Part shown: piece after piece, positions 3,475-60,919 of the stretch
How positions within the stretch are numbered: position 1 is the stretch's first letter
Layout: each line of letters begins with the position of its first letter
Origin: Candidatus Magasanikiibacteriota bacterium
GTDB lineage: Bacteria > Patescibacteriota > Patescibacteriia > Magasanikbacterales > UBA922
Direction of reading: 5' to 3'
NCBI GenBank assembly: GCA_041665025.1
Contig: JBAYJP010000002.1
Span: forward strand, 64,691 to 128,690
DNA: 64,000 nt
Notes under the pieces: model-generated
Database searches by the model: none
What the model was told of the DNA's origin: nothing
The model's input: only the letters and a program-made list of their open reading frames with translations
Program-made: the position numbers and the translations under genes

Positions 3475-4266
3475 ATGGGTAAATATTCCACCACATTCAA
3501 AAATTCCCTATCCGTCTTTATACAGTACCGGTTGAATTTGGGTTTAATTTTAGTGAGTCAATTAGTAAGTCTCAGCGGCTTAGTTTTTTTGTGGCTCTCC
3601 ATATATTCATCGGGTCAACAGATGGGAAACTATGGACTGCAAGAGATTATTACCTACTATGTACTCGTCACGCTCATCGCAACGATTATTGGGGATGGCA
3701 TTGGGATGGCATTTGATGTTGTGGAAGATATAAACCGGGGAGAAATAATACACTACCTGCTTAAACCTTTTTCTTATGTAAAATATCGATTTTTAACGCT
3801 CGTCGGAGCTATTACTATCAATCTTATGTTTATGGCGCCTCTTATAATTATAGGTGGGTACCTCATGCGGCAGTCTTTTTCCTTTCCCAGTGCAAGCGGT
3901 TGGGTATATTTTTGTATTACCCTGTCTTTTGCAATATTATTTGAATTTCTCATTTTTATGCTAGCTTCACTATCTTCTTTTTGGGTAGTCCGAGGAAGCA
4001 GTTTTATATATGCCACGATACTAATCACTGGATTATTTGATGGATCCCTCATTCCACTCGACTTATTTCCTTACTGGGCATATCACATTACAAGCTATCT
4101 GCCATTTCAATTCATAATTTTTACACCCATCCAAGCTTTTCTGGAAAATATCTATAGCCCAGCAAAATTATTTTCTGTAGCAATGGTATGGATTATTATT
4201 CTGCTTTTACTATTACTATGGGTATGGAAAAGAGGCGTAAAAAAATTAGAAGGGGTAGGAAGATAA
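3475..4266 (+). CDS. ABC-2 family transporter permease, type A (module 3)
   Basis: 263 aa paralog. C-terminal KRGVKKLEGVGR. Confidence 0.7.
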   Translation: MGKYSTTFKNSLSVFIQYRLNLGLILVSQLVSLSGLVFLWLSIYSSGQQMGNYGLQEIITYYVLVTLIATIIGDGIGMAFDVVEDINRGEIIHYLLKPFSYVKYRFLTLVGAITINLMFMAPLIIIGGYLMRQSFSFPSASGWVYFCITLSFAILFEFLIFMLASLSSFWVVRGSSFIYATILITGLFDGSLIPLDLFPYWAYHITSYLPFQFIIFTPIQAFLENIYSPAKLFSVAMVWIIILLLLLLWVWKRGVKKLEGVGR

Positions 4267-4267
4267 T

Positions 4268-5056
4268 ATGTTAAAATATTTTCGATTATACAAAATATTT
4301 TTCAAAATCAATTTCATGAAAGACATGACATACCGGGGCAACTTCTTTTTTGGCTGTACCCTCACTATTTTTGAGTCTGTCATATCATTTTTAATAATAA
4401 CGATTATCTACAGCCACATACGGAGCATCTCTGGCTGGAGTTATGAGGATACACTAGTACTTACGGGTATAAACATGCTTTCAATTAGCTTTGGATGGCT
4501 TTTCTACAGAGGAGGTTTGAGTGACCTAGACAGAGTAGTCAATCGGGGTGACTTTGATTGGATGCTTGTAAAGCCAATAGATACACAATTTTTATCTACC
4601 GTTAATAGAATAGACATCGAGGATGGATCCCGTTCGTTAGTAGGATTTGCGATCATTGTTTATGGCATGACAGGAACAAAATTGTTCGATGTCTGGTATC
4701 TATTTCCTTTATGTATTATTACATTTTTATGTGGGCAAGTAGTGTTATACGCAGTTTTTTTAATTTTTAAAACCGTAACATTCAAATCTATACAAGGCTG
4801 GGCGACAAATGGCATTGCACATCGATTTCAACAACTCGCACAATACCCTACTGATATTTACAAAGGAATAGTGCGCGTCATATATACATACATGTTGCCT
4901 TTGATCTTTGTCGCAACAGTTCCTGCAAAAATACTTACCGGAAAATTTACGTGGCAACTATGTGCAGGTTCTCTCATTGCAGCAATACTCAGCTTTATCA
5001 TCTCACGAACAATCTGGAAATTTGCAGTGAAAAAATATAGTAGTGCATCATCTTAG
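4268..5056 (+). CDS. ABC-2 family transporter permease, type B (module 3)
   Basis: 262 aa paralog. C-terminal KKYSSASS. Confidence 0.7.
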   Translation: MLKYFRLYKIFFKINFMKDMTYRGNFFFGCTLTIFESVISFLIITIIYSHIRSISGWSYEDTLVLTGINMLSISFGWLFYRGGLSDLDRVVNRGDFDWMLVKPIDTQFLSTVNRIDIEDGSRSLVGFAIIVYGMTGTKLFDVWYLFPLCIITFLCGQVVLYAVFLIFKTVTFKSIQGWATNGIAHRFQQLAQYPTDIYKGIVRVIYTYMLPLIFVATVPAKILTGKFTWQLCAGSLIAAILSFIISRTIWKFAVKKYSSASS

Positions 5057-5136
5057 CACGTAGCACGTACCACATACCAAAACCGATTGATATGTGATAC
5101 GTGTTATGTGATACGTGTTATGTGCTATGTGTTATG
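5055..5136. repeat. ACGTG-family heptamer palindrome (R4)
   Basis: 'agcacgtagcacgtaccacatacc ... atatgtgatacgtgttatgtgatacgtgttatgtgctatgtgttatgg'. Confidence 0.8.
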
Positions 5137-5187
5137 GAAAATTTACTAAAAAACGCTAAAATGCTATAATTCACCTCGTCATAACTA

Positions 5188-6183
5188 ATGTATATGCCTA
5201 TTATCAGCGTAAACAACCTCTCCAAAACCTACGAGTACTACAAAAAGCAGGCGGGTTTATGGAATTCAGTGAAAAGTTTGTTTCATCGTGAAAAGCTCTT
5301 TACAGAAGCGGTGAAACAAGTTAACGTCACTATAGAGGAGGGAGAATTGGTTGGGTTCTTAGGCCCCAATGGTGCAGGAAAGACAACAACGCTCAAAATG
5401 CTCTCTGGCATTCTTTATCCAACATCAGGAGAAGCAACCGTGCTTGGATATACACCGTGGAAACGCCAAAAAGAATTTCAAAAGCAATTTGCCCTTGTCA
5501 TGGGACAAAAAAATCAGTTATGGTGGGATTTGCCAGCCATGGAAAGTTTTATTTTGAACAAAGAAATATACGAGGTGCCCGATGCTGAGTTCAAAGAAAC
5601 GCTCGATGAATTAACTGAACTGCTTGATATCAAAGACATCTTGGATGTCCAGGTACGCAAACTTTCACTGGGCCAACGGATGAAATGCGAACTGGTCACC
5701 GCGCTCCTCCACTCCCCAAAAGTATTATTTTTGGATGAGCCTACAATTGGACTCGATGTCGTTTCTCAAAACAATATCCGACAATTTTTGAAAAAATATA
5801 ACACGACCAAAAAAACAACGATTATCCTCACTTCCCACTACATGGAAGATGTGGAAGCACTGTGCAAGAGAGTTGTTATTATCAATCATGGACAGGTCAT
5901 GTATGATGGCGATCTACATGAATTGATTAATACCTATGTTGACCACAAAGTGCTCGAGGTAACATTTACTGAAGACGTGACGCGAAAGACATTTGAAAAA
6001 ATGGGGCGCATAAAAGAATACACGGAAAGGCGTATTGTCCTTGAAGTGCCAAAAGCTGAAGCAAAAAAAGTCGCGACCAAAATGCTTTCCAAATTGCCTA
6101 TTGATGATATACTTATCAATGAACCTAATATCGACGACGTGATACGCACCATCTTCCAACGCGAAAAACCACACAGCACATAG
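5188..6183 (+). CDS. ABC transporter ATP-binding protein (partner of the ABC-2 permeases)
   Basis: Walker A GPNGAGKTT, ABC signature LSLGQRMK, Walker B LFLDEPT, H-loop TSHYMED. Start could be the MPIIS ATG at 5194. Confidence 0.85.
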   Translation: MYMPIISVNNLSKTYEYYKKQAGLWNSVKSLFHREKLFTEAVKQVNVTIEEGELVGFLGPNGAGKTTTLKMLSGILYPTSGEATVLGYTPWKRQKEFQKQFALVMGQKNQLWWDLPAMESFILNKEIYEVPDAEFKETLDELTELLDIKDILDVQVRKLSLGQRMKCELVTALLHSPKVLFLDEPTIGLDVVSQNNIRQFLKKYNTTKKTTIILTSHYMEDVEALCKRVVIINHGQVMYDGDLHELINTYVDHKVLEVTFTEDVTRKTFEKMGRIKEYTERRIVLEVPKAEAKKVATKMLSKLPIDDILINEPNIDDVIRTIFQREKPHST

Positions 6184-10315: not shown

Positions 10316-12805
10316 ATGAAAATTGTTTCAAAAAAAGAAGAAGGGGAAGAAACAAAATTTGAAGGAAGGGTAGAGCCTGTCAATCTCGTAGACGAAATGC
10401 AAACGTCATATCTTGACTACGCCATGAGTGTCATTGTTTCACGTGCTTTGCCAGATGTGCGCGATGGCTTGAAGCCTGTGCACCGCAGAATTCTCTATGC
10501 GATGTGGGATATTGGCCTCAAACATACTTCAAAATTTAGAAAGTCTGCTCACGTGGTCGGTGAAGTGATGGCCAAATACCACCCTCATGGAGACAGTGCT
10601 ATTTATGATTCTCTCGTACGCATGGCCCAAGATTTCAACATGCGCCACATGCTTGTGCACGGTCAAGGTAACTTTGGTTCTATGGATGGAGATAGCGCGG
10701 CTGCCATGCGTTATACCGAAGCAAAACTACATGCGATAGCCGAAGAAATGCTTTTAGATATAGAAAAGAAAACTGTAGACTTTTCACCCACATACGATGG
10801 CTCACACCGTGAACCGCGTGTATTGCCAAGCAAGCTCCCCAATCTTTTACTCAACGGCAGTATGGGTATTGCAGTTGGTATGGCAACCAATATTCCTCCT
10901 CATAATTTGGGAGAATTATGCGACGGTGTCACCCACCTCATAGACAATCCAAAAGCAACCGTTGAAGACCTCATGACATATATCAAAGGGCCTGACTTCC
11001 CCACCGGTGGTATTATTTATAATGCAAAAGATATTGAGGTTGCCTATGCCACAGGACGAGGCGGCATCCTTATGCGCGCGCGCACTGACATACAAGAGGA
11101 TAAGACTGGCTATTTCAAAATAATCGTGAGCGAGGTTCCCTATCAAGTAAACAAAGCAGTGTTGATTGAAAAAATTGCCACATTAGTTCAAGAAAAAAAA
11201 TTAGAAGATATTAGAGATCTGCGCGACGAGTCAAATAAAGACGGCGTGCGTATTGTTATTGAACTCAAAAAAGACGCCTATCCCAAAAAAGTTTTGAACC
11301 GTTTGTTCAAACTCACCGAACTCCAGACAACATTCCATGTCAATTTGCTCGCACTTGTCGATGGGCTCCAGCCTCGTGTCTTGAACATCAAAACAGTACT
11401 CGAGGAACATATCAAACATCGTCAAGAAATTATCCGCCGGCGCACTGAATTTGATTTGGATAAGGCAAAAGAACGCGCACATATTTTGGAAGGTTTGAAA
11501 AAAGCGTTAGACAAAATTGATTTAGTTATTGCAACCATTCGCAAATCAAAAGACAAAGAAGAGGCAAAACTAAACCTCATGAAAAAATTTGATTTTACCG
11601 AACGCCAGACCGTCGCTATTCTTGAGATGAGATTGCAACAACTTGCCAACCTTGAACGCCAGAAGATTGAAGATGAGCTAAAAAAGATGAAAGAGCTCAT
11701 AAAGGAATACGAAGCAATTCTTGCAAGTCCTAAAAAAATACTCGGTCTTATCAAAGACGAAATACAAGATATCAAATCAAAATTTGCCGATGAAAGACGC
11801 ACCCAAATTGTCGCTCATGGTGTTAAAGAATTTAGTATAGAAGACCTCGTGCCAAATGAACCGACACTTGTCATTACTACGCGTGACGGCTACATCAAAC
11901 GCTTGCCTCCTGATACATTCAAAACTCAAAGCCGTGGAGGCAAAGGTGTTATGGGATTGACTACCAAAGAAGAAGACGTGGTAGATGAGATTATTTCGAC
12001 CAACACGCATGACAATATTTTGTTCTTTACCACTCGTGGACGCGTATTCCAACTCCGTGCATATGACATGCCCGTTGCGTCACGCACATCCAAAGGACAG
12101 GCTTTGGTAAATTTCTTGCAACTCGCTCCAAACGAAAAAGTGAGTGCTATGCTCTCTGTAAGCGACATGAGTAAATATAAATACCTTATCATGCTCACGA
12201 CCAAAGGCACTATAAAAAAGACCGCTCTTGAGGATTTCTCCAATGTGCGCCGCTCAGGACTTATTGCACTCAAGCTCAAAGAAGACGACATGCTCGAATG
12301 GGTACGCCCTACAAGCGGCAGTAATGACATTATGGTCATAACAGCCCAAGGACAGTCCATCCGCTTCAAGGAAGCCAATGTACGGCCTATGGGACGTACG
12401 GCAAGTGGAGTGCGTGGCATGAGACTCAAGTCAAATGACCACGTCGTAGGCATGGATGCAGTCTCATCTGACTTGGTAAAACGAAAAGTCCTTGAACTCC
12501 TGGTCATTTCTGAACATGGGCTTGGCAAACGCACCAATCTAAATGAATACAAAATTCAAGGTCGTGGCGGTAGTGGTGTAAAAACAATGGCAGTAACCCA
12601 AAAAACAGGAAAAATTATTAGCGCGCACATTATCAATAATACTGAAAATAATGACCTCATGATTATTTCAGTAAATGGCCAGGTCGTACGCACACCGCTC
12701 AAATCAATTTCAGTGCTCGGTCGTGCAACCCAAGGCGTACGGGTGATGCGATTTAAAGAAGAGAATGATAAAGTTGCCAGTATTGCAGTGCTTCTGGGAG
12801 AATAA
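10316..12805 (+). CDS. gyrA: DNA gyrase subunit A
   Basis: 829 aa. N-terminal breakage-reunion domain (AAMRYTEAKL, active-site Tyr region) and C-terminal beta-pinwheel repeats (QGRGGKGV, RTASGVRGM, QGRGGSGV). Confidence 0.95.
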   Translation: MKIVSKKEEGEETKFEGRVEPVNLVDEMQTSYLDYAMSVIVSRALPDVRDGLKPVHRRILYAMWDIGLKHTSKFRKSAHVVGEVMAKYHPHGDSAIYDSLVRMAQDFNMRHMLVHGQGNFGSMDGDSAAAMRYTEAKLHAIAEEMLLDIEKKTVDFSPTYDGSHREPRVLPSKLPNLLLNGSMGIAVGMATNIPPHNLGELCDGVTHLIDNPKATVEDLMTYIKGPDFPTGGIIYNAKDIEVAYATGRGGILMRARTDIQEDKTGYFKIIVSEVPYQVNKAVLIEKIATLVQEKKLEDIRDLRDESNKDGVRIVIELKKDAYPKKVLNRLFKLTELQTTFHVNLLALVDGLQPRVLNIKTVLEEHIKHRQEIIRRRTEFDLDKAKERAHILEGLKKALDKIDLVIATIRKSKDKEEAKLNLMKKFDFTERQTVAILEMRLQQLANLERQKIEDELKKMKELIKEYEAILASPKKILGLIKDEIQDIKSKFADERRTQIVAHGVKEFSIEDLVPNEPTLVITTRDGYIKRLPPDTFKTQSRGGKGVMGLTTKEEDVVDEIISTNTHDNILFFTTRGRVFQLRAYDMPVASRTSKGQALVNFLQLAPNEKVSAMLSVSDMSKYKYLIMLTTKGTIKKTALEDFSNVRRSGLIALKLKEDDMLEWVRPTSGSNDIMVITAQGQSIRFKEANVRPMGRTASGVRGMRLKSNDHVVGMDAVSSDLVKRKVLELLVISEHGLGKRTNLNEYKIQGRGGSGVKTMAVTQKTGKIISAHIINNTENNDLMIISVNGQVVRTPLKSISVLGRATQGVRVMRFKEENDKVASIAVLLGE

Positions 12806-57647: not shown

Positions 57648-58088
57648 TTAAAATGGTATATCCTCTACTTTGATCTCTTCATCGCTTACATGTGAAGTTG
57701 GTTGGGATGACGATCCTGATGGAGGCGGAGGCACATCACTACCTTGTGCAGAAGAAGAACGAGGAGCATCAAGCATAATAAGATTTTCTGCTATGATTTC
57801 TGTCCGGTATCTCTTCACACCGTCCTGACCAGTCCAATCGCGTGTTTCAATACGTCCTTCTACATACACACGTCGTCCTTTGCTCAAGTATTGTCCGGCA
57901 ATATCTGCCAATTTACCCCACAATACGCAATTGTGATATTCAACACGTTCTTGGCGTACGCCGGTGTTATCTGTCCAGACACGATTTGTCGCAATGCCAA
58001 TAGTTGCAACGCTTTGTCCAGAAGGAGTTGTCCGAACTTCTGGGTCTCGAGTTAAACGACCGAGAATCGTAGCGCGATTGAGATCCAT
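57648..58088 (-). CDS. ssb: single-stranded DNA-binding protein
   Basis: OB-fold 'LNRATILGRLTRDPEVRTTPSG..VATIGIATNRVW' and acidic C-terminal tail ending 'DIPF'. Confidence 0.9.
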   Translation of the reverse strand: MDLNRATILGRLTRDPEVRTTPSGQSVATIGIATNRVWTDNTGVRQERVEYHNCVLWGKLADIAGQYLSKGRRVYVEGRIETRDWTGQDGVKRYRTEIIAENLIMLDAPRSSSAQGSDVPPPPSGSSSQPTSHVSDEEIKVEDIPF

Positions 58089-58254: not shown

Positions 58255-58908
58255 TTACACCTTATCAATATCTTGCTGCAAGATCTCATCGAGCTTCTGG
58301 TCGATATCATCTATACTTAAGGAAACTTTTTTCTTTTCCTCTTTCTTACGCGTTCGTGTTGCTGTTTTTACTGGCTCTACTGTTTCCTCTTTCTTTTCAG
58401 GCTCGACTGGAGCAGAAACGGGAACATCTTCTTTAACCTCGACAACAGGTACTTCTTCTTTTTTGTCTGCTACTTCTACTTTTGTCTCTTCAACTCTCTC
58501 GTGTCTAACTTCTGGAACAGAGGGAGAAACAAAAGTTCCACCCAAAATAGCATTCTCTTTTGCCAAACGAGCATTGCTTGGTGCGGTTGGGTCTTGTGCC
58601 AATTTATAGGATACCACATGTGCAGGATCATACAAACGTACGACAACACGAAGCAACCCACCGAGAAGCCGTACTTTTCTCTCTATATCTTGAATATTTT
58701 CTGGTTCAAGGCCAAAACGAAAGATGTGGAAATATCCGTATCTAATGTTTTTTATTGGATATGCCAGACGGCTTTTCCCCATGTCTTCCATGGCTATGTT
58801 TTCTGCATTATTTGCCTGAAGAATTTTGTCTACCTCAGCAACGGTTGGAGCTACTTCAGCTTCAGCCAATGTGCCTGGCAAAACGCAAAACATTTCATAA
58901 TGATTCAT
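58255..58908 (-). CDS. rpsF: 30S ribosomal protein S6 with long charged C-terminal extension
   Basis: N-terminal ~100 aa 'MNHYEMFCVLPG...YGYFHIFRFGLE' is S6; 110-aa Glu/Lys/Val/Pro-rich tail. Confidence 0.85.
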   Translation of the reverse strand: MNHYEMFCVLPGTLAEAEVAPTVAEVDKILQANNAENIAMEDMGKSRLAYPIKNIRYGYFHIFRFGLEPENIQDIERKVRLLGGLLRVVVRLYDPAHVVSYKLAQDPTAPSNARLAKENAILGGTFVSPSVPEVRHERVEETKVEVADKKEEVPVVEVKEDVPVSAPVEPEKKEETVEPVKTATRTRKKEEKKKVSLSIDDIDQKLDEILQQDIDKV

Positions 58909-59640: not shown

Positions 59641-59718
59641 TGGTCGGGGTGATAGGACTTGAACCTACGGCCTCATCGTCCCAAACGACGCGCTCTAGCC
59701 AACTGAGCTACACCCCGC
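59641..59718 (-). tRNA. tRNA-Pro (anticodon TGG), CCA encoded
   Basis: Minus-strand cloverleaf GCGGGGT-GT-AGCTC..GAGC-CGTCG-TTTGGGA-CGATG-AGGCC-GTAGG-TTCAAGT-CCTAT-CACCCCG-A-CCA. Confidence 0.85.
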
Positions 59719-60387
59719 TTTTAAACCATCTATAAAACCAATTATTGTATGAAATAAATCAACACGATAGACACGGACATGAACAGTTCCATTCGTTAAG
59801 TACCTCTTCTGCTTCCCTCTGCTGGCGCTACTTCTCACTATTGAAGTTGCAATAAATTGAGTAGCAGGAACACCTATTATTTTCTGCCAATATTCAAGTG
59901 CCTTTTTCCTTTGTTTTTGTGAATGTACTGCCAATTGTATTCTAAAATCTTTTTCTTTTACATGGCAAATCTCCCTAAAAAATCTCATCATCATCCGTAT
60001 CATGTCTGGATCTGAATTGGTAAAATCAACACATTTCCAAAGACTTCCTTCAGCTCCTTTTTTGTATCCTTCTCCCCAATACAAAGCAATCCCCATCATA
60101 AACAAATCCCTCTGAGAAATCTTTCCAATCTGTTTTGCAAAATATTCTCTGATTTGTTGAGCTTTTTGTTTTGCGTGTGTGGTCTGATCTTTATTCCTTC
60201 GAATAAGGGCCCGTACACTCTTTTGCCTTCCCTTTTTTTGTATTTTTTCTTGAGCAGAATGAGATAAAACAATGTCTGAGAGCCAAAAAGATAGTGTACT
60301 TTTGGGAACAGACGTCGCACGAGAAATTTCAGTATAGCTTCTGCCTCTCTTTCTGAGTTGTATTGCAATTGATTTATCTGTTCTCAT
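59695..60387 (-). CDS. HTH-domain protein with LAGLIDADG-like motifs (possible free-standing homing-endonuclease-like gene)
   Basis: N-terminal HTH 'SYTEISRATSVPKSTLSFWL'; 'LFMMGIALYWGEGYK' and C-terminal 'IIGFIDGLKAG' resemble LAGLIDADG blocks. Lies between tRNA-Phe(intron) and tRNA-Pro; the 3' end overlaps tRNA-Pro by ~24 nt, so the stop or extent is uncertain. Confidence 0.3.
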   Translation of the reverse strand: MRTDKSIAIQLRKRGRSYTEISRATSVPKSTLSFWLSDIVLSHSAQEKIQKKGRQKSVRALIRRNKDQTTHAKQKAQQIREYFAKQIGKISQRDLFMMGIALYWGEGYKKGAEGSLWKCVDFTNSDPDMIRMMMRFFREICHVKEKDFRIQLAVHSQKQRKKALEYWQKIIGVPATQFIATSIVRSSASRGKQKRYLTNGTVHVRVYRVDLFHTIIGFIDGLKAGCSSVG

Positions 60388-60436
60388 ATAATTGAACCTA
60401 CGGCACGTTGACGAAATTAGTATACCGTAGGTTCAA
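60381..60436. repeat. 14-bp perfect-stem hairpin
   Basis: 'aattgaacctacgg cacgttgacgaaattagtata ccgtaggttcaatt' between the tRNA-Phe 3' exon and the downstream ORF. Confidence 0.7.
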
Positions 60437-60448
60437 TTATACTGCAAG

Positions 60449-60744
60449 TGCCGAGGGCCAGGATTGAACTGGCGACACAAGGATTTTCCTTTTGACTTAT
60501 ATTTCTATAAGGATCGGACTATATCTTCATCCCGATTAAATCGGGAGTTGGGCGCTTATGCATGATTATTGTTGATACTCACACGCTAGTCTCTACACCT
60601 TTTCTGGGAGTCTAATCGCCAGAACTTGGCTCGGGATTGCCTTTTTAATAAGGTTTCCCCGAATTCACCCAAATTTCTCATTCTAAATTACTTTAGAAGG
60701 GACCGAAAACCAGTCCTCTGCTCTACCACTGAGCTACCTCGGCA
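60449..60744 (-). tRNA. tRNA-Phe (anticodon GAA) interrupted by a ~220-nt intron in the anticodon loop
   Basis: Exon 1 (60744->60711) GCCGAGG-TA-GCTCAGTGGTAGAGC-A-GAGGA-CTG. Exon 2 (60487->60449) AAAA-TCCTT-GTGTC-GCCAG-TTCAATC-CTGGC-CCTCGGC-A. Spliced product matches bacterial tRNA-Phe nearly base for base. Confidence 0.75.
60488..60710 (-). ncRNA. group I-like self-splicing intron in tRNA-Phe
   Basis: 5' exon end GGACU can pair with intron 'GGUCC' (P1, U.G at splice site). Internal 'AGACUA'/'GAGACUAGC' and downstream 'UAGUCC' resemble P7 strands. Intron ends in G before exon 2. No ORF inside. Confidence 0.5.
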
Positions 60745-60780
60745 TTTAACGTGGTAAAACAAATTCCTTTAGTCAAGGAA

Positions 60781-60856
60781 TGGTGGACCCGAGGAGATTC
60801 GAACTCCTGACCTCATGCGTGCAAAGCAAGCGCTCTACCAACTAAGCTACGGGCCC
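60781..60856 (-). tRNA. tRNA-Ala (anticodon TGC), CCA encoded
   Basis: GGGCCCG-TA-GCTT..AGAGC-G-CTTGC-TTTGCAC-GCATG-AGGTC-AGGAG-TTCGAAT-CTCCT-CGGGTCC-A-CCA with G3.U70. Confidence 0.85.
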
Positions 60857-60919
60857 TTGTATTTAAAAACGAAAAAAGTATACCAATCTAACTAAAAAAA
60901 GTCAAGGAGTATTATATGA

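Follow-up and report, generated by a model that had tools for sequence, protein, structure and literature searches.

How does a tRNA-Phe gene that is cut in two persist in a bacterial genome, and has the protein-coding gene next to it any part in this? The question is raised by a locus in a stretch of 64,000 nt from a Candidatus Magasanikiibacteriota bacterium (assembly GCA_041665025.1, contig JBAYJP010000002.1, positions 64,691 to 128,690), which we call the window and whose own numbering is used throughout. Read on the minus strand, the locus comprises, in this order, a tRNA-Ala(UGC) gene, a split tRNA-Phe(GAA) gene, an open reading frame (ORF) coding for a protein of 230 residues, and a tRNA-Pro(UGG) gene. 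A 223-nt group I intron, devoid of any ORF, separates U33 from G34 in the tRNA-Phe(GAA) gene. The 230-codon ORF beside it shows a tight and specific linkage with intron-containing tRNA-Phe genes, together with presence/absence polymorphism. We give an even chance to the possibility that it is a free-standing homing-endonuclease cassette working with the ORF-less intron.

The split tRNA-Phe gene and its intron

The original prediction, made from the letters of the window, proposed that a group I-like intron splits a tRNA-Phe(GAA) gene in the anticodon loop. This was borne out by two tools. A cmscan search with the Rfam model RF00028 (Intron_gpI) gave a match at 60495-60723 on the minus strand that spans the full model (positions 1-253) and scores 87.9 bits, well above the gathering score of 50 (E=4.4e-21). 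Related introns score between 53 and 101 bits with the same model. ARAGORN called no tRNA-Phe at the locus with its default settings; when introns were allowed, it recovered tRNA-Phe(GAA) with a 223-nt intron at position 33/34. Joined in silico, the exons form a clean canonical cloverleaf with a GAA anticodon and the discriminator base A73. No second tRNA-Phe gene was found by ARAGORN in the 64-kb window.

The exact junctions were set with the rules for group I introns, which call for a U as the last base of the 5' exon and a G as that of the intron. On this basis, the 5' exon (nucleotide 1 to U33) runs from 60743 to 60712, the intron from 60711 to 60489 and the 3' exon (G34 to A73, with no encoded CCA) from 60488 to 60449, all on the minus strand. 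The two halves proposed initially do splice to tRNA-Phe, but their start at 60744 included one base too many and the junction was off by one ambiguous G. The last five nucleotides of the 5' exon, GGACU (60716-60712), pair with GGUCC (60704-60700) as P1, in which a U.G pair marks the splice site. The UUUUC guide (60709-60705) pairs with GAAAA of the 3' exon (60488-60484) to form P10. The P7 strands are GACUA and UAGUC, and the last base of the intron is G; P7 is a pseudoknot and is visible solely in the covariance-model alignment. That alignment contains all the elements that had been anticipated, namely the P1 pairing, the U.G wobble, the terminal G and the two P7 strands, and they have covariation support.

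For comparison, we used a set of 126 distinct intron-containing tRNA-Phe genes, coming from genome loci identified via the ORF and from metagenome loci identified via a DNA pattern of the intron and the D arm. All 126 have a U before the 5' splice site, a G at the end of the intron and a U.G pair at the splice site. P1 is found in four compensating versions (GACU/GGUC, CCCU/GGGG, GCCU/GGGC and GAUU/GAUC), and P10 alternates between GAAAA/UUUUC and GAAGA/UCUUC from clade to clade. RNAalifold, applied to a structure-blind MAFFT alignment of the 126 sequences, recovered the tRNA arms as well as P1, P2, P3, P4, P6/6a, P8 and P9. Its consensus has 58 pairs, 97.9% of them canonical, with changes on both sides in 35 of the 58. 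With the U and the G at the splice sites invariant, and with P1, P10 and the core helices covarying in these relatives, the comparative data represent strong evidence for what would be a maintained ribozyme in a gene that needs splicing.

An anticodon-loop intron in tRNA-Phe had also been expected to be noteworthy for this lineage. It is not, since a homologous intron at 33/34 has already been tabulated: Nakagawa et al. (2026, mSystems, PMC13011429) reported a group I intron at position 33/34 of tRNA-Phe(GAA) in the complete Doudnabacteria genome GCA_016699995.1. In the same survey, a tRNA-Phe intron was present in only one of the 95 complete Patescibacteria genomes analysed, other Patescibacteria tRNA introns self-spliced, and no Patescibacteria tRNA intron was assigned to subgroup IC (PMC13011429). 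The Doudnabacteria intron is like that of the window in its host gene, its insertion site and its size (~210 nt versus 223 nt here), and the two have a homologous core (...GGTGTAGAGACTAG...CAACAATAATC...AGCGCCC...GATATAGTCC). In contrast, its host belongs to another class, and it is found in a different anticodon stem with a matching guide (CGCCU/GGGCC) and with GAAGA/UCUUC as P10. The intron of the window is a further member of a reported kind rather than a new one. It matters mainly for annotation: standard tRNA finders miss the gene, and the genome would seem to be devoid of tRNA-Phe, a point already made in the literature.

Introns with the AGGTGTAGAGACTA core also occur in other tRNA genes of the metagenome loci (L088-L207). 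According to ARAGORN calls, they are found in tRNA-Thr(UGU) (14 cases), tRNA-Asn(GUU) (6), tRNA-Leu(CAA) (4), tRNA-Lys(CUU) (3), tRNA-Tyr (3), tRNA-Arg(CCG) (2) and others. No member of the ORF family lies beside the introns with this core in other tRNAs at these loci.

The neighbouring protein and its linkage to the intron

The ORF (59695-60387, minus strand) codes for a protein identical to a hypothetical protein found at NCBI in a Candidatus Magasanikbacteria metagenome-assembled genome. It has 105 homologues at E≤3e-20, nearly all of 220-235 residues, and a search with a 16-sequence alignment detected relatives encoded in 484 species-representative genomes. Those with informative names belong to the Patescibacteria, and some third-party assemblies labelled Gammaproteobacteria or Bdellovibrionales, in which the tRNA context is the same, are probably mislabelled.

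The ORF product had been described as harbouring a helix-turn-helix (HTH) and two LAGLIDADG-like blocks, and as possibly being a degenerate homing endonuclease that had moved out of the intron. Searches of sequence libraries agree with the HTH, which they place at residues ~4-38 (nt 60274-60378) and relate to the homeodomain, resolvase or Tc3 types. It is followed by a long helix (residues 43-84) and, in the predicted model, by a LAGLIDADG-like domain (residues ~90-229). Only one of the two blocks was retained, the motif GIALYWGEGYK (residues 99-109, nt 60061-60093), so that there is one motif in one domain. The second block, IIGFIDGLK, was rejected: it corresponds to the helix at the C terminus, and the family does not conserve its acidic position. 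In the model, a helix spanning residues 92-106 ends in LYWGEGYK; this motif is invariant, and E106 occupies the position of the metal-binding Asp or Glu of LAGLIDADG enzymes. E106 was invariant in 40 and in 53 family members that share 24-57% identity. Structural comparison of the model gave the highest scores with WhiA (7.2-7.4), followed by an intein endonuclease (6.8-6.9), I-DmoI (6.7-6.9), I-Tsp061I (6.6-6.9), E-DreI (6.6-6.7), I-CeuI (6.2-6.3) and PI-PfuI (6.0), with unrelated alpha/beta folds at 5.8-6.2. The protein is therefore described here as an HTH followed by a single predicted LAGLIDADG-like domain, a fold assignment that is supported but not proven.

The idea of a degenerate endonuclease does not fit with the ORF being intact and belonging to a conserved family of full-length proteins of 220-235 residues. 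Similarly, nothing indicates that it left the intron, as the introns of the 126 loci are 199-299 nt long and none has an ORF inside. An otherwise intact family member (locus L057, ~2498) has ACG in place of the ATG start codon, which could represent early decay, a non-canonical start or a sequencing error. ORF remnants were considered as a record of decay and this was dropped: in L181 and L118 the ORF is either interrupted by the end of the contig or displaced, and only L057 has a mutated start codon.

We determined how often the ORF accompanies the intron in a sample of the 80 best genome loci, 75 of which were determinable. An intron-containing tRNA-Phe gene lies within 250 nt of the ORF in 70 of these 75. 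It is upstream on the same strand in 56 of them, with a gap of ~55-70 nt as in the window, 19-42 nt downstream in 11 and divergent in three. As for the remaining five loci, two have a tRNA-Phe gene devoid of intron (L076 and L082), with an unusual, divergent anticodon stem, and three have no tRNA-Phe nearby. The other neighbour of the ORF varies (tRNA-Pro, -Gly, -Met, -Val or -Arg), and tRNA-Phe is its constant partner.

Metagenome loci were picked blind to the ORF; their related introns interrupt tRNA-Phe and several other tRNAs, among them those for Thr, Asn, Leu, Lys, Tyr and Arg. We counted only the loci flanked by 1 kb or more on either side. The ORF was found beside 14 of the 27 tRNA-Phe intron loci (13 are without it) and beside none of the 17 intron loci in other tRNAs. 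The ORF-less tRNA-Phe loci are spread across the intron tree, where at least 14 state changes are required to account for fourteen of them. On this basis, the ORF has been gained or lost many times. Introns with and without the ORF are close relatives, with 79-95% identity across tRNA-Phe and intron. The extreme case is that of L135, which lacks the ORF, and L052, which has it, with 95% identity over the tRNA-Phe gene and intron. Between tRNA-Phe and tRNA-Pro, L135 has just a short hairpin made of an A-run and a T-run (10621-10678), and its tRNA-Pro gene is unrelated to that of L052; this contrast points to recombination at the cassette boundary. The loci with the most window-like tRNA-Phe and intron among those retrieved, L090 (81%) and L145 (78%), are both ORF-less. 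The Ala-Phe-Pro array of the window is also that of L145, and the short contig of L090 shows only Phe-Pro. At these empty sites, 86 or 41 nt of unrelated spacer take the place of the 750-nt cassette.

Several loci of the collection have further peculiarities. In the Staskawiczbacteria locus (L006/L007), where the ORF lies beside an unusual tRNA-Phe gene without intron, the adjacent tRNA-Gly is followed by a large serine recombinase gene (3736-5370), which suggests that an element is integrated at the array. In a Moranbacteria contig (L033, ~1100-1152), the hairpin described below and the ORF are present, the upstream sequence diverges exactly at the 3' end of tRNA-Phe and no tRNA-Phe was found, which reflects either a rearrangement or a join made in assembly. 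Small ORFs of 87-104 residues with a GIY-YIG domain are found beside the same tRNA arrays (L001-L003, 2209-2523; L209, 3337-3642; L210, 2348-2629) and constitute another nuclease-like family in these neighbourhoods.

Possible roles of the ORF product

We favour a free-standing homing endonuclease because an ORF-less intron in an essential gene has at its side a dispensable gene with a putative promoter of its own, because the product of that gene combines a DNA-binding domain and a LAGLIDADG-like domain with a conserved acid at the catalytic position, and because the cassette is specific for one host gene, lies at a constant proximity on a variable side and in a variable orientation, and has been gained and lost repeatedly. 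The pre-tRNA would self-splice by the two-step, guanosine-initiated pathway. In this process, the guide GGUCC and the exon sequence GGACU would form P1 with U.G at the cleavage site, UUUUC and GAAAA of the 3' exon would form P10, and the terminal G would be the 3' splice-site nucleotide. Having a single motif, the protein would work as a homodimer that recognises a pseudo-palindrome. The DNA of the anticodon stem-loop around position 33/34 may offer such a site, which the intron would split. The substrate of the endonuclease would be tRNA-Phe genes without an intron, cleaved at the position of intron insertion or close to it; a chromosome that already has the intron would be protected, its target being split. 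On repair of the break, the cut allele would receive a copy of both the intron and the endonuclease gene. The divergent anticodon stems of the two intron-less tRNA-Phe genes beside an ORF agree, if only indirectly, with such a target. What we infer here is the nuclease activity, its target site and dimerisation.

Such collaborative, or trans, homing has been described for phages (Hausner et al. 2014, PMC3984707; F-CphI, PMC6083498; MobE, PMC2790892). As in those cases, an endonuclease-like gene lies just outside an intron-bearing gene, the intron has no ORF, and the arrangement is polymorphic for presence and absence. The phage systems involve protein-coding host genes and Endo VII-like or HNH enzymes, whereas the present one involves a tRNA gene of a cellular bacterium and a LAGLIDADG-like protein. 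In addition, the intron insertion site was shown to be the target in the phage cases, and here it would only presumably be so. The protein also differs from the single-motif enzymes I-CreI, I-CeuI and I-MsoI. It has no detectable similarity to any LAGLIDADG Pfam family, it has an additional N-terminal HTH and a 40-residue helix as well as a helix between the third and fourth strands, and its gene is free-standing rather than intron-encoded.

Several observations weigh against this proposal. The structural scores are modest, and the top match, WhiA, is a non-catalytic relative. The Pfam models LAGLIDADG_1/2/3, WhiA and Hom_end matched neither the protein of the window nor any of 40 relatives; searches of NCBIfam, PHROGs and PDB sequences gave no nuclease-family match and only matches for the N-terminal HTH, and Foldseek found nothing significant in the PDB. 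At two loci (L076 and L082), the ORF is paired with a tRNA-Phe gene that has no intron. Distant members of the family (L208-L212, 30-37% identity) with an intact Glu motif are found beside intron-less tRNA-Gln, tRNA-Met(CAU) or tRNA-Arg/Val genes. Since members lie beside intron-less tRNAs, the ORF family does not depend on the intron: the wider family is tRNA-associated, and the association with an intron is found only in this subfamily. Its members may represent a group of elements associated with tRNA genes in general. Finally, rapid decay is typical of selfish endonuclease genes, and the ORF is kept intact across classes in lineage-typical tRNA contexts, a pattern that looks more like long vertical retention, possibly for a host function, than like the decay of a selfish gene.

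One rival proposal is that the ORF product is a domesticated, non-catalytic DNA-binding protein of LAGLIDADG ancestry which, like WhiA, would regulate the tRNA array or its own promoter, e.g. through a conserved TTGAACC/GGTTCAA inverted repeat, and would mobilise nothing. WhiA (DUF199) is a LAGLIDADG-derived transcription factor encoded by a core gene, with two degenerate LAGLIDADG domains and a C-terminal HTH, and it has lost the catalytic acidic residues. In contrast, the protein studied here has a single domain, an N-terminal HTH and an invariant Glu at the catalytic position, it is encoded by an accessory gene, and the WhiA models of Pfam and NCBIfam do not match it. A regulator of this kind is also hard to reconcile with a dispensable gene, missing from about half of the tRNA-Phe intron loci and independently gained or lost at least 14 times, or with a spacing of ~9 to 24 nt between the arms of the repeat, which would not suit a fixed dimeric operator, and it leaves the 93% association with intron-containing alleles unexplained. 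We consider it unlikely. Alternatively, the ORF might code for a maturase that binds the intron RNA and assists the splicing of an essential tRNA-Phe present in a single copy. Among the LAGLIDADG proteins of organellar group I introns, several act as maturases, and a maturase would agree with the specificity of the ORF for tRNA-Phe introns and with its position near the tRNA, on the same strand, in most loci. Splicing factors encoded by the host or by introns have been reviewed (PMC3984707). We nevertheless regard a maturase as quite unlikely, given that 13 of the 27 well-flanked tRNA-Phe intron loci have no ORF and introns 79-95% identical to those that have one. Moreover, the intron is small, with a good full-model RF00028 score and complete, covarying core helices; the additional domain of the protein is an HTH of DNA type, and the ORF is also found beside intron-less tRNA-Phe genes, its distant relatives being beside other intron-less tRNAs.

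The linkage itself could be incidental if the ORF were a lineage-specific resident of tRNA arrays, the tRNA-Phe intron being common in the same lineages. The family is indeed adjacent to tRNA genes even where there is no intron, and the neighbouring tRNAs follow the lineage. However, the side and strand of the ORF change and its other neighbour varies, and yet, in 70 of 75 loci, no more than 250 nt separate it from an intron-containing tRNA-Phe; the ORF is absent from all 17 loci with related introns in other tRNAs; and a tRNA-Phe intron occurs in only one of 95 complete Patescibacteria genomes (Nakagawa et al., PMC13011429). A coincidence of this sort is, in our view, very unlikely. That the split tRNA-Phe is a dead gene, i.e. 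two pseudo-tRNA halves around a decayed intron, is scarcely credible. Default tools do annotate no tRNA-Phe at the locus, but the spliced product is a canonical tRNA-Phe, there is no other tRNA-Phe in the window, and the exons, P1, P10 and the intron core are kept by compensatory change in the 126 relatives.

Extending the homing-endonuclease hypothesis to the whole family, we would tentatively propose, with slightly less than even confidence, that bacteria of the candidate phyla radiation carry a large family of active, free-standing LAGLIDADG-type endonucleases dedicated to tRNA genes and unrecognised by current libraries. If this is true, such a partnership would be without precedent, in the literature that we searched, for a cellular genome as well as for a tRNA gene, and it would overturn the inference that Patescibacteria tRNA introns are immobile for want of endonuclease genes. 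The published survey looked for such genes only inside introns longer than 500 bp and concluded that most Patescibacteria tRNA introns have no homing endonuclease genes and hence are unlikely to move horizontally (PMC13011429). It makes no mention of a neighbouring ORF or hairpin, and the cassette appears to be undescribed in the literature that we searched. The cassette qualifies the published conclusion on immobility, as the survey searched inside introns and an endonuclease-like gene is found here just outside about half of the tRNA-Phe introns. Should the protein be an active nuclease, this would explain the persistence of these introns in highly reduced genomes, extend collaborative homing from phages to cellular tRNA genes and add a compact, sequence-divergent LAGLIDADG scaffold with an extra HTH domain.

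The hairpin, the putative promoter and the tRNA array

The cassette, 61 nt downstream of tRNA-Phe, consists of a putative sigma-70-type promoter, a 17-bp hairpin and the 230-residue gene. A perfect 14-bp hairpin had been noted 3' of tRNA-Phe. The hairpin is indeed perfect, but it has 17 bp rather than 14, and it is a conserved element that encloses the putative promoter and ribosome-binding site of the ORF. The two arms of the inverted repeat (60441-60425 and 60403-60387) are separated by a 21-nt loop (60404-60424), and the RNA fold has a free energy of -28.8 kcal/mol (z=-7.6 compared with shuffled sequences). The putative -35 hexamer, TTGCAG (60442-60447), begins 2 nt past the 3' end of tRNA-Phe. 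The 17-nt promoter spacer is exactly the 5' arm TATAATTGAACCTACGG (60425-60441), and the putative -10 hexamer TATACT (60424-60419) opens the loop. The 3' arm CCGTAGGTTCAATTATA (60387-60403) contains a Shine-Dalgarno-like AGGU ~8 nt ahead of the ATG, and the last base of the arm is the A of this start codon.

We compared the spacers of 55 relatives. Of the pairs in their core stem UUGAACCUAUGG / CCAUAGGUUCAA, 95.6% are canonical, and compensatory C-G, U-A and U-G exchanges occur at three pairs. All 55 have a -10-like hexamer (TAnnnT) in the 5' side of the loop, most often TATAAT (28) or TATACT (10), within a conserved TGnTATAAT. TG is present at -15/-14 ahead of it in 37, TTG is found 16-18 nt upstream of the -10 in 28, and 42 have a Shine-Dalgarno-like motif 7-18 nt before the ATG. 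Similar promoter-in-hairpin sequences are also found upstream of the ORF in two distant loci, L209 and L211. A consensus promoter scan did not list the ORF promoter, whose -35 matches only three of six positions, and no terminator was called at the hairpin by a scan for consensus terminators. Some relatives have A- and T-runs on either side of the stem, and there the stem could also terminate the tRNA transcript. The spacing of the repeat arms ranges from ~9 to 24 nt across relatives, and the inverted repeat was not retained as an operator of fixed spacing, its loop being variable in length.

Most likely, the hairpin hides the ribosome-binding site and the start codon of the ORF on read-through transcripts. 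RNA reading through from the tRNA promoter (60905-60877) would fold the hairpin and mask both, whereas RNA begun at the -10 in the loop, devoid of the 5' arm, would be translatable; both the use of this promoter and the translational masking are what we infer. In phage T4, several endonuclease genes (as known from I-TevI and the lysozyme literature) have a ribosome-binding site sequestered by a hairpin on read-through RNA and freed on RNA from an internal promoter. The present case resembles them in having a hairpin over the Shine-Dalgarno-like sequence and the start codon with a putative -10 within the hairpin. It differs in the possible role as terminator in those relatives with a T-run.

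The flanking tRNA genes were correctly anticipated, as ARAGORN called both on the minus strand. The upstream neighbour, tRNA-Ala(UGC), is at 60781-60856 and scores 68.6 bits with the Rfam tRNA model. Upstream of the tRNA-Ala/tRNA-Phe array, the consensus scan identified a putative sigma-70-like promoter (60877-60905, minus strand), with TTGACT and TATACT separated by 17 nt and TG before the -10. The downstream neighbour, tRNA-Pro(UGG), is at 59641-59717 and is also matched by the Rfam tRNA model. The first 23 nt of this gene are shared with the ORF, which has no stop codon of its own: the last 23 nt of the ORF, including TAG, fall in the 5' part of tRNA-Pro (59695-59717). Overlaps of ~20 nt between the ORF and a tRNA gene are also found at L010, L036, L039, L045, L050, L067, L209 and L211, as well as in distant paralogues abutting tRNA-Gln and tRNA-Met. 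Cutting of a co-transcript by RNase P would take away the stop codon of the ORF. Truncation of the ORF by tRNA-Pro was considered and dropped, because the lengths in the family are uniformly 220-235 residues.

Elsewhere in the window, inspection of the translations by eye indicated an ORF resembling ribosomal protein S6 with a long Lys/Glu-rich C-terminal tail, beside a gene resembling that of a single-strand-binding protein (58255-58908 and 57648-58088, both on the minus strand).

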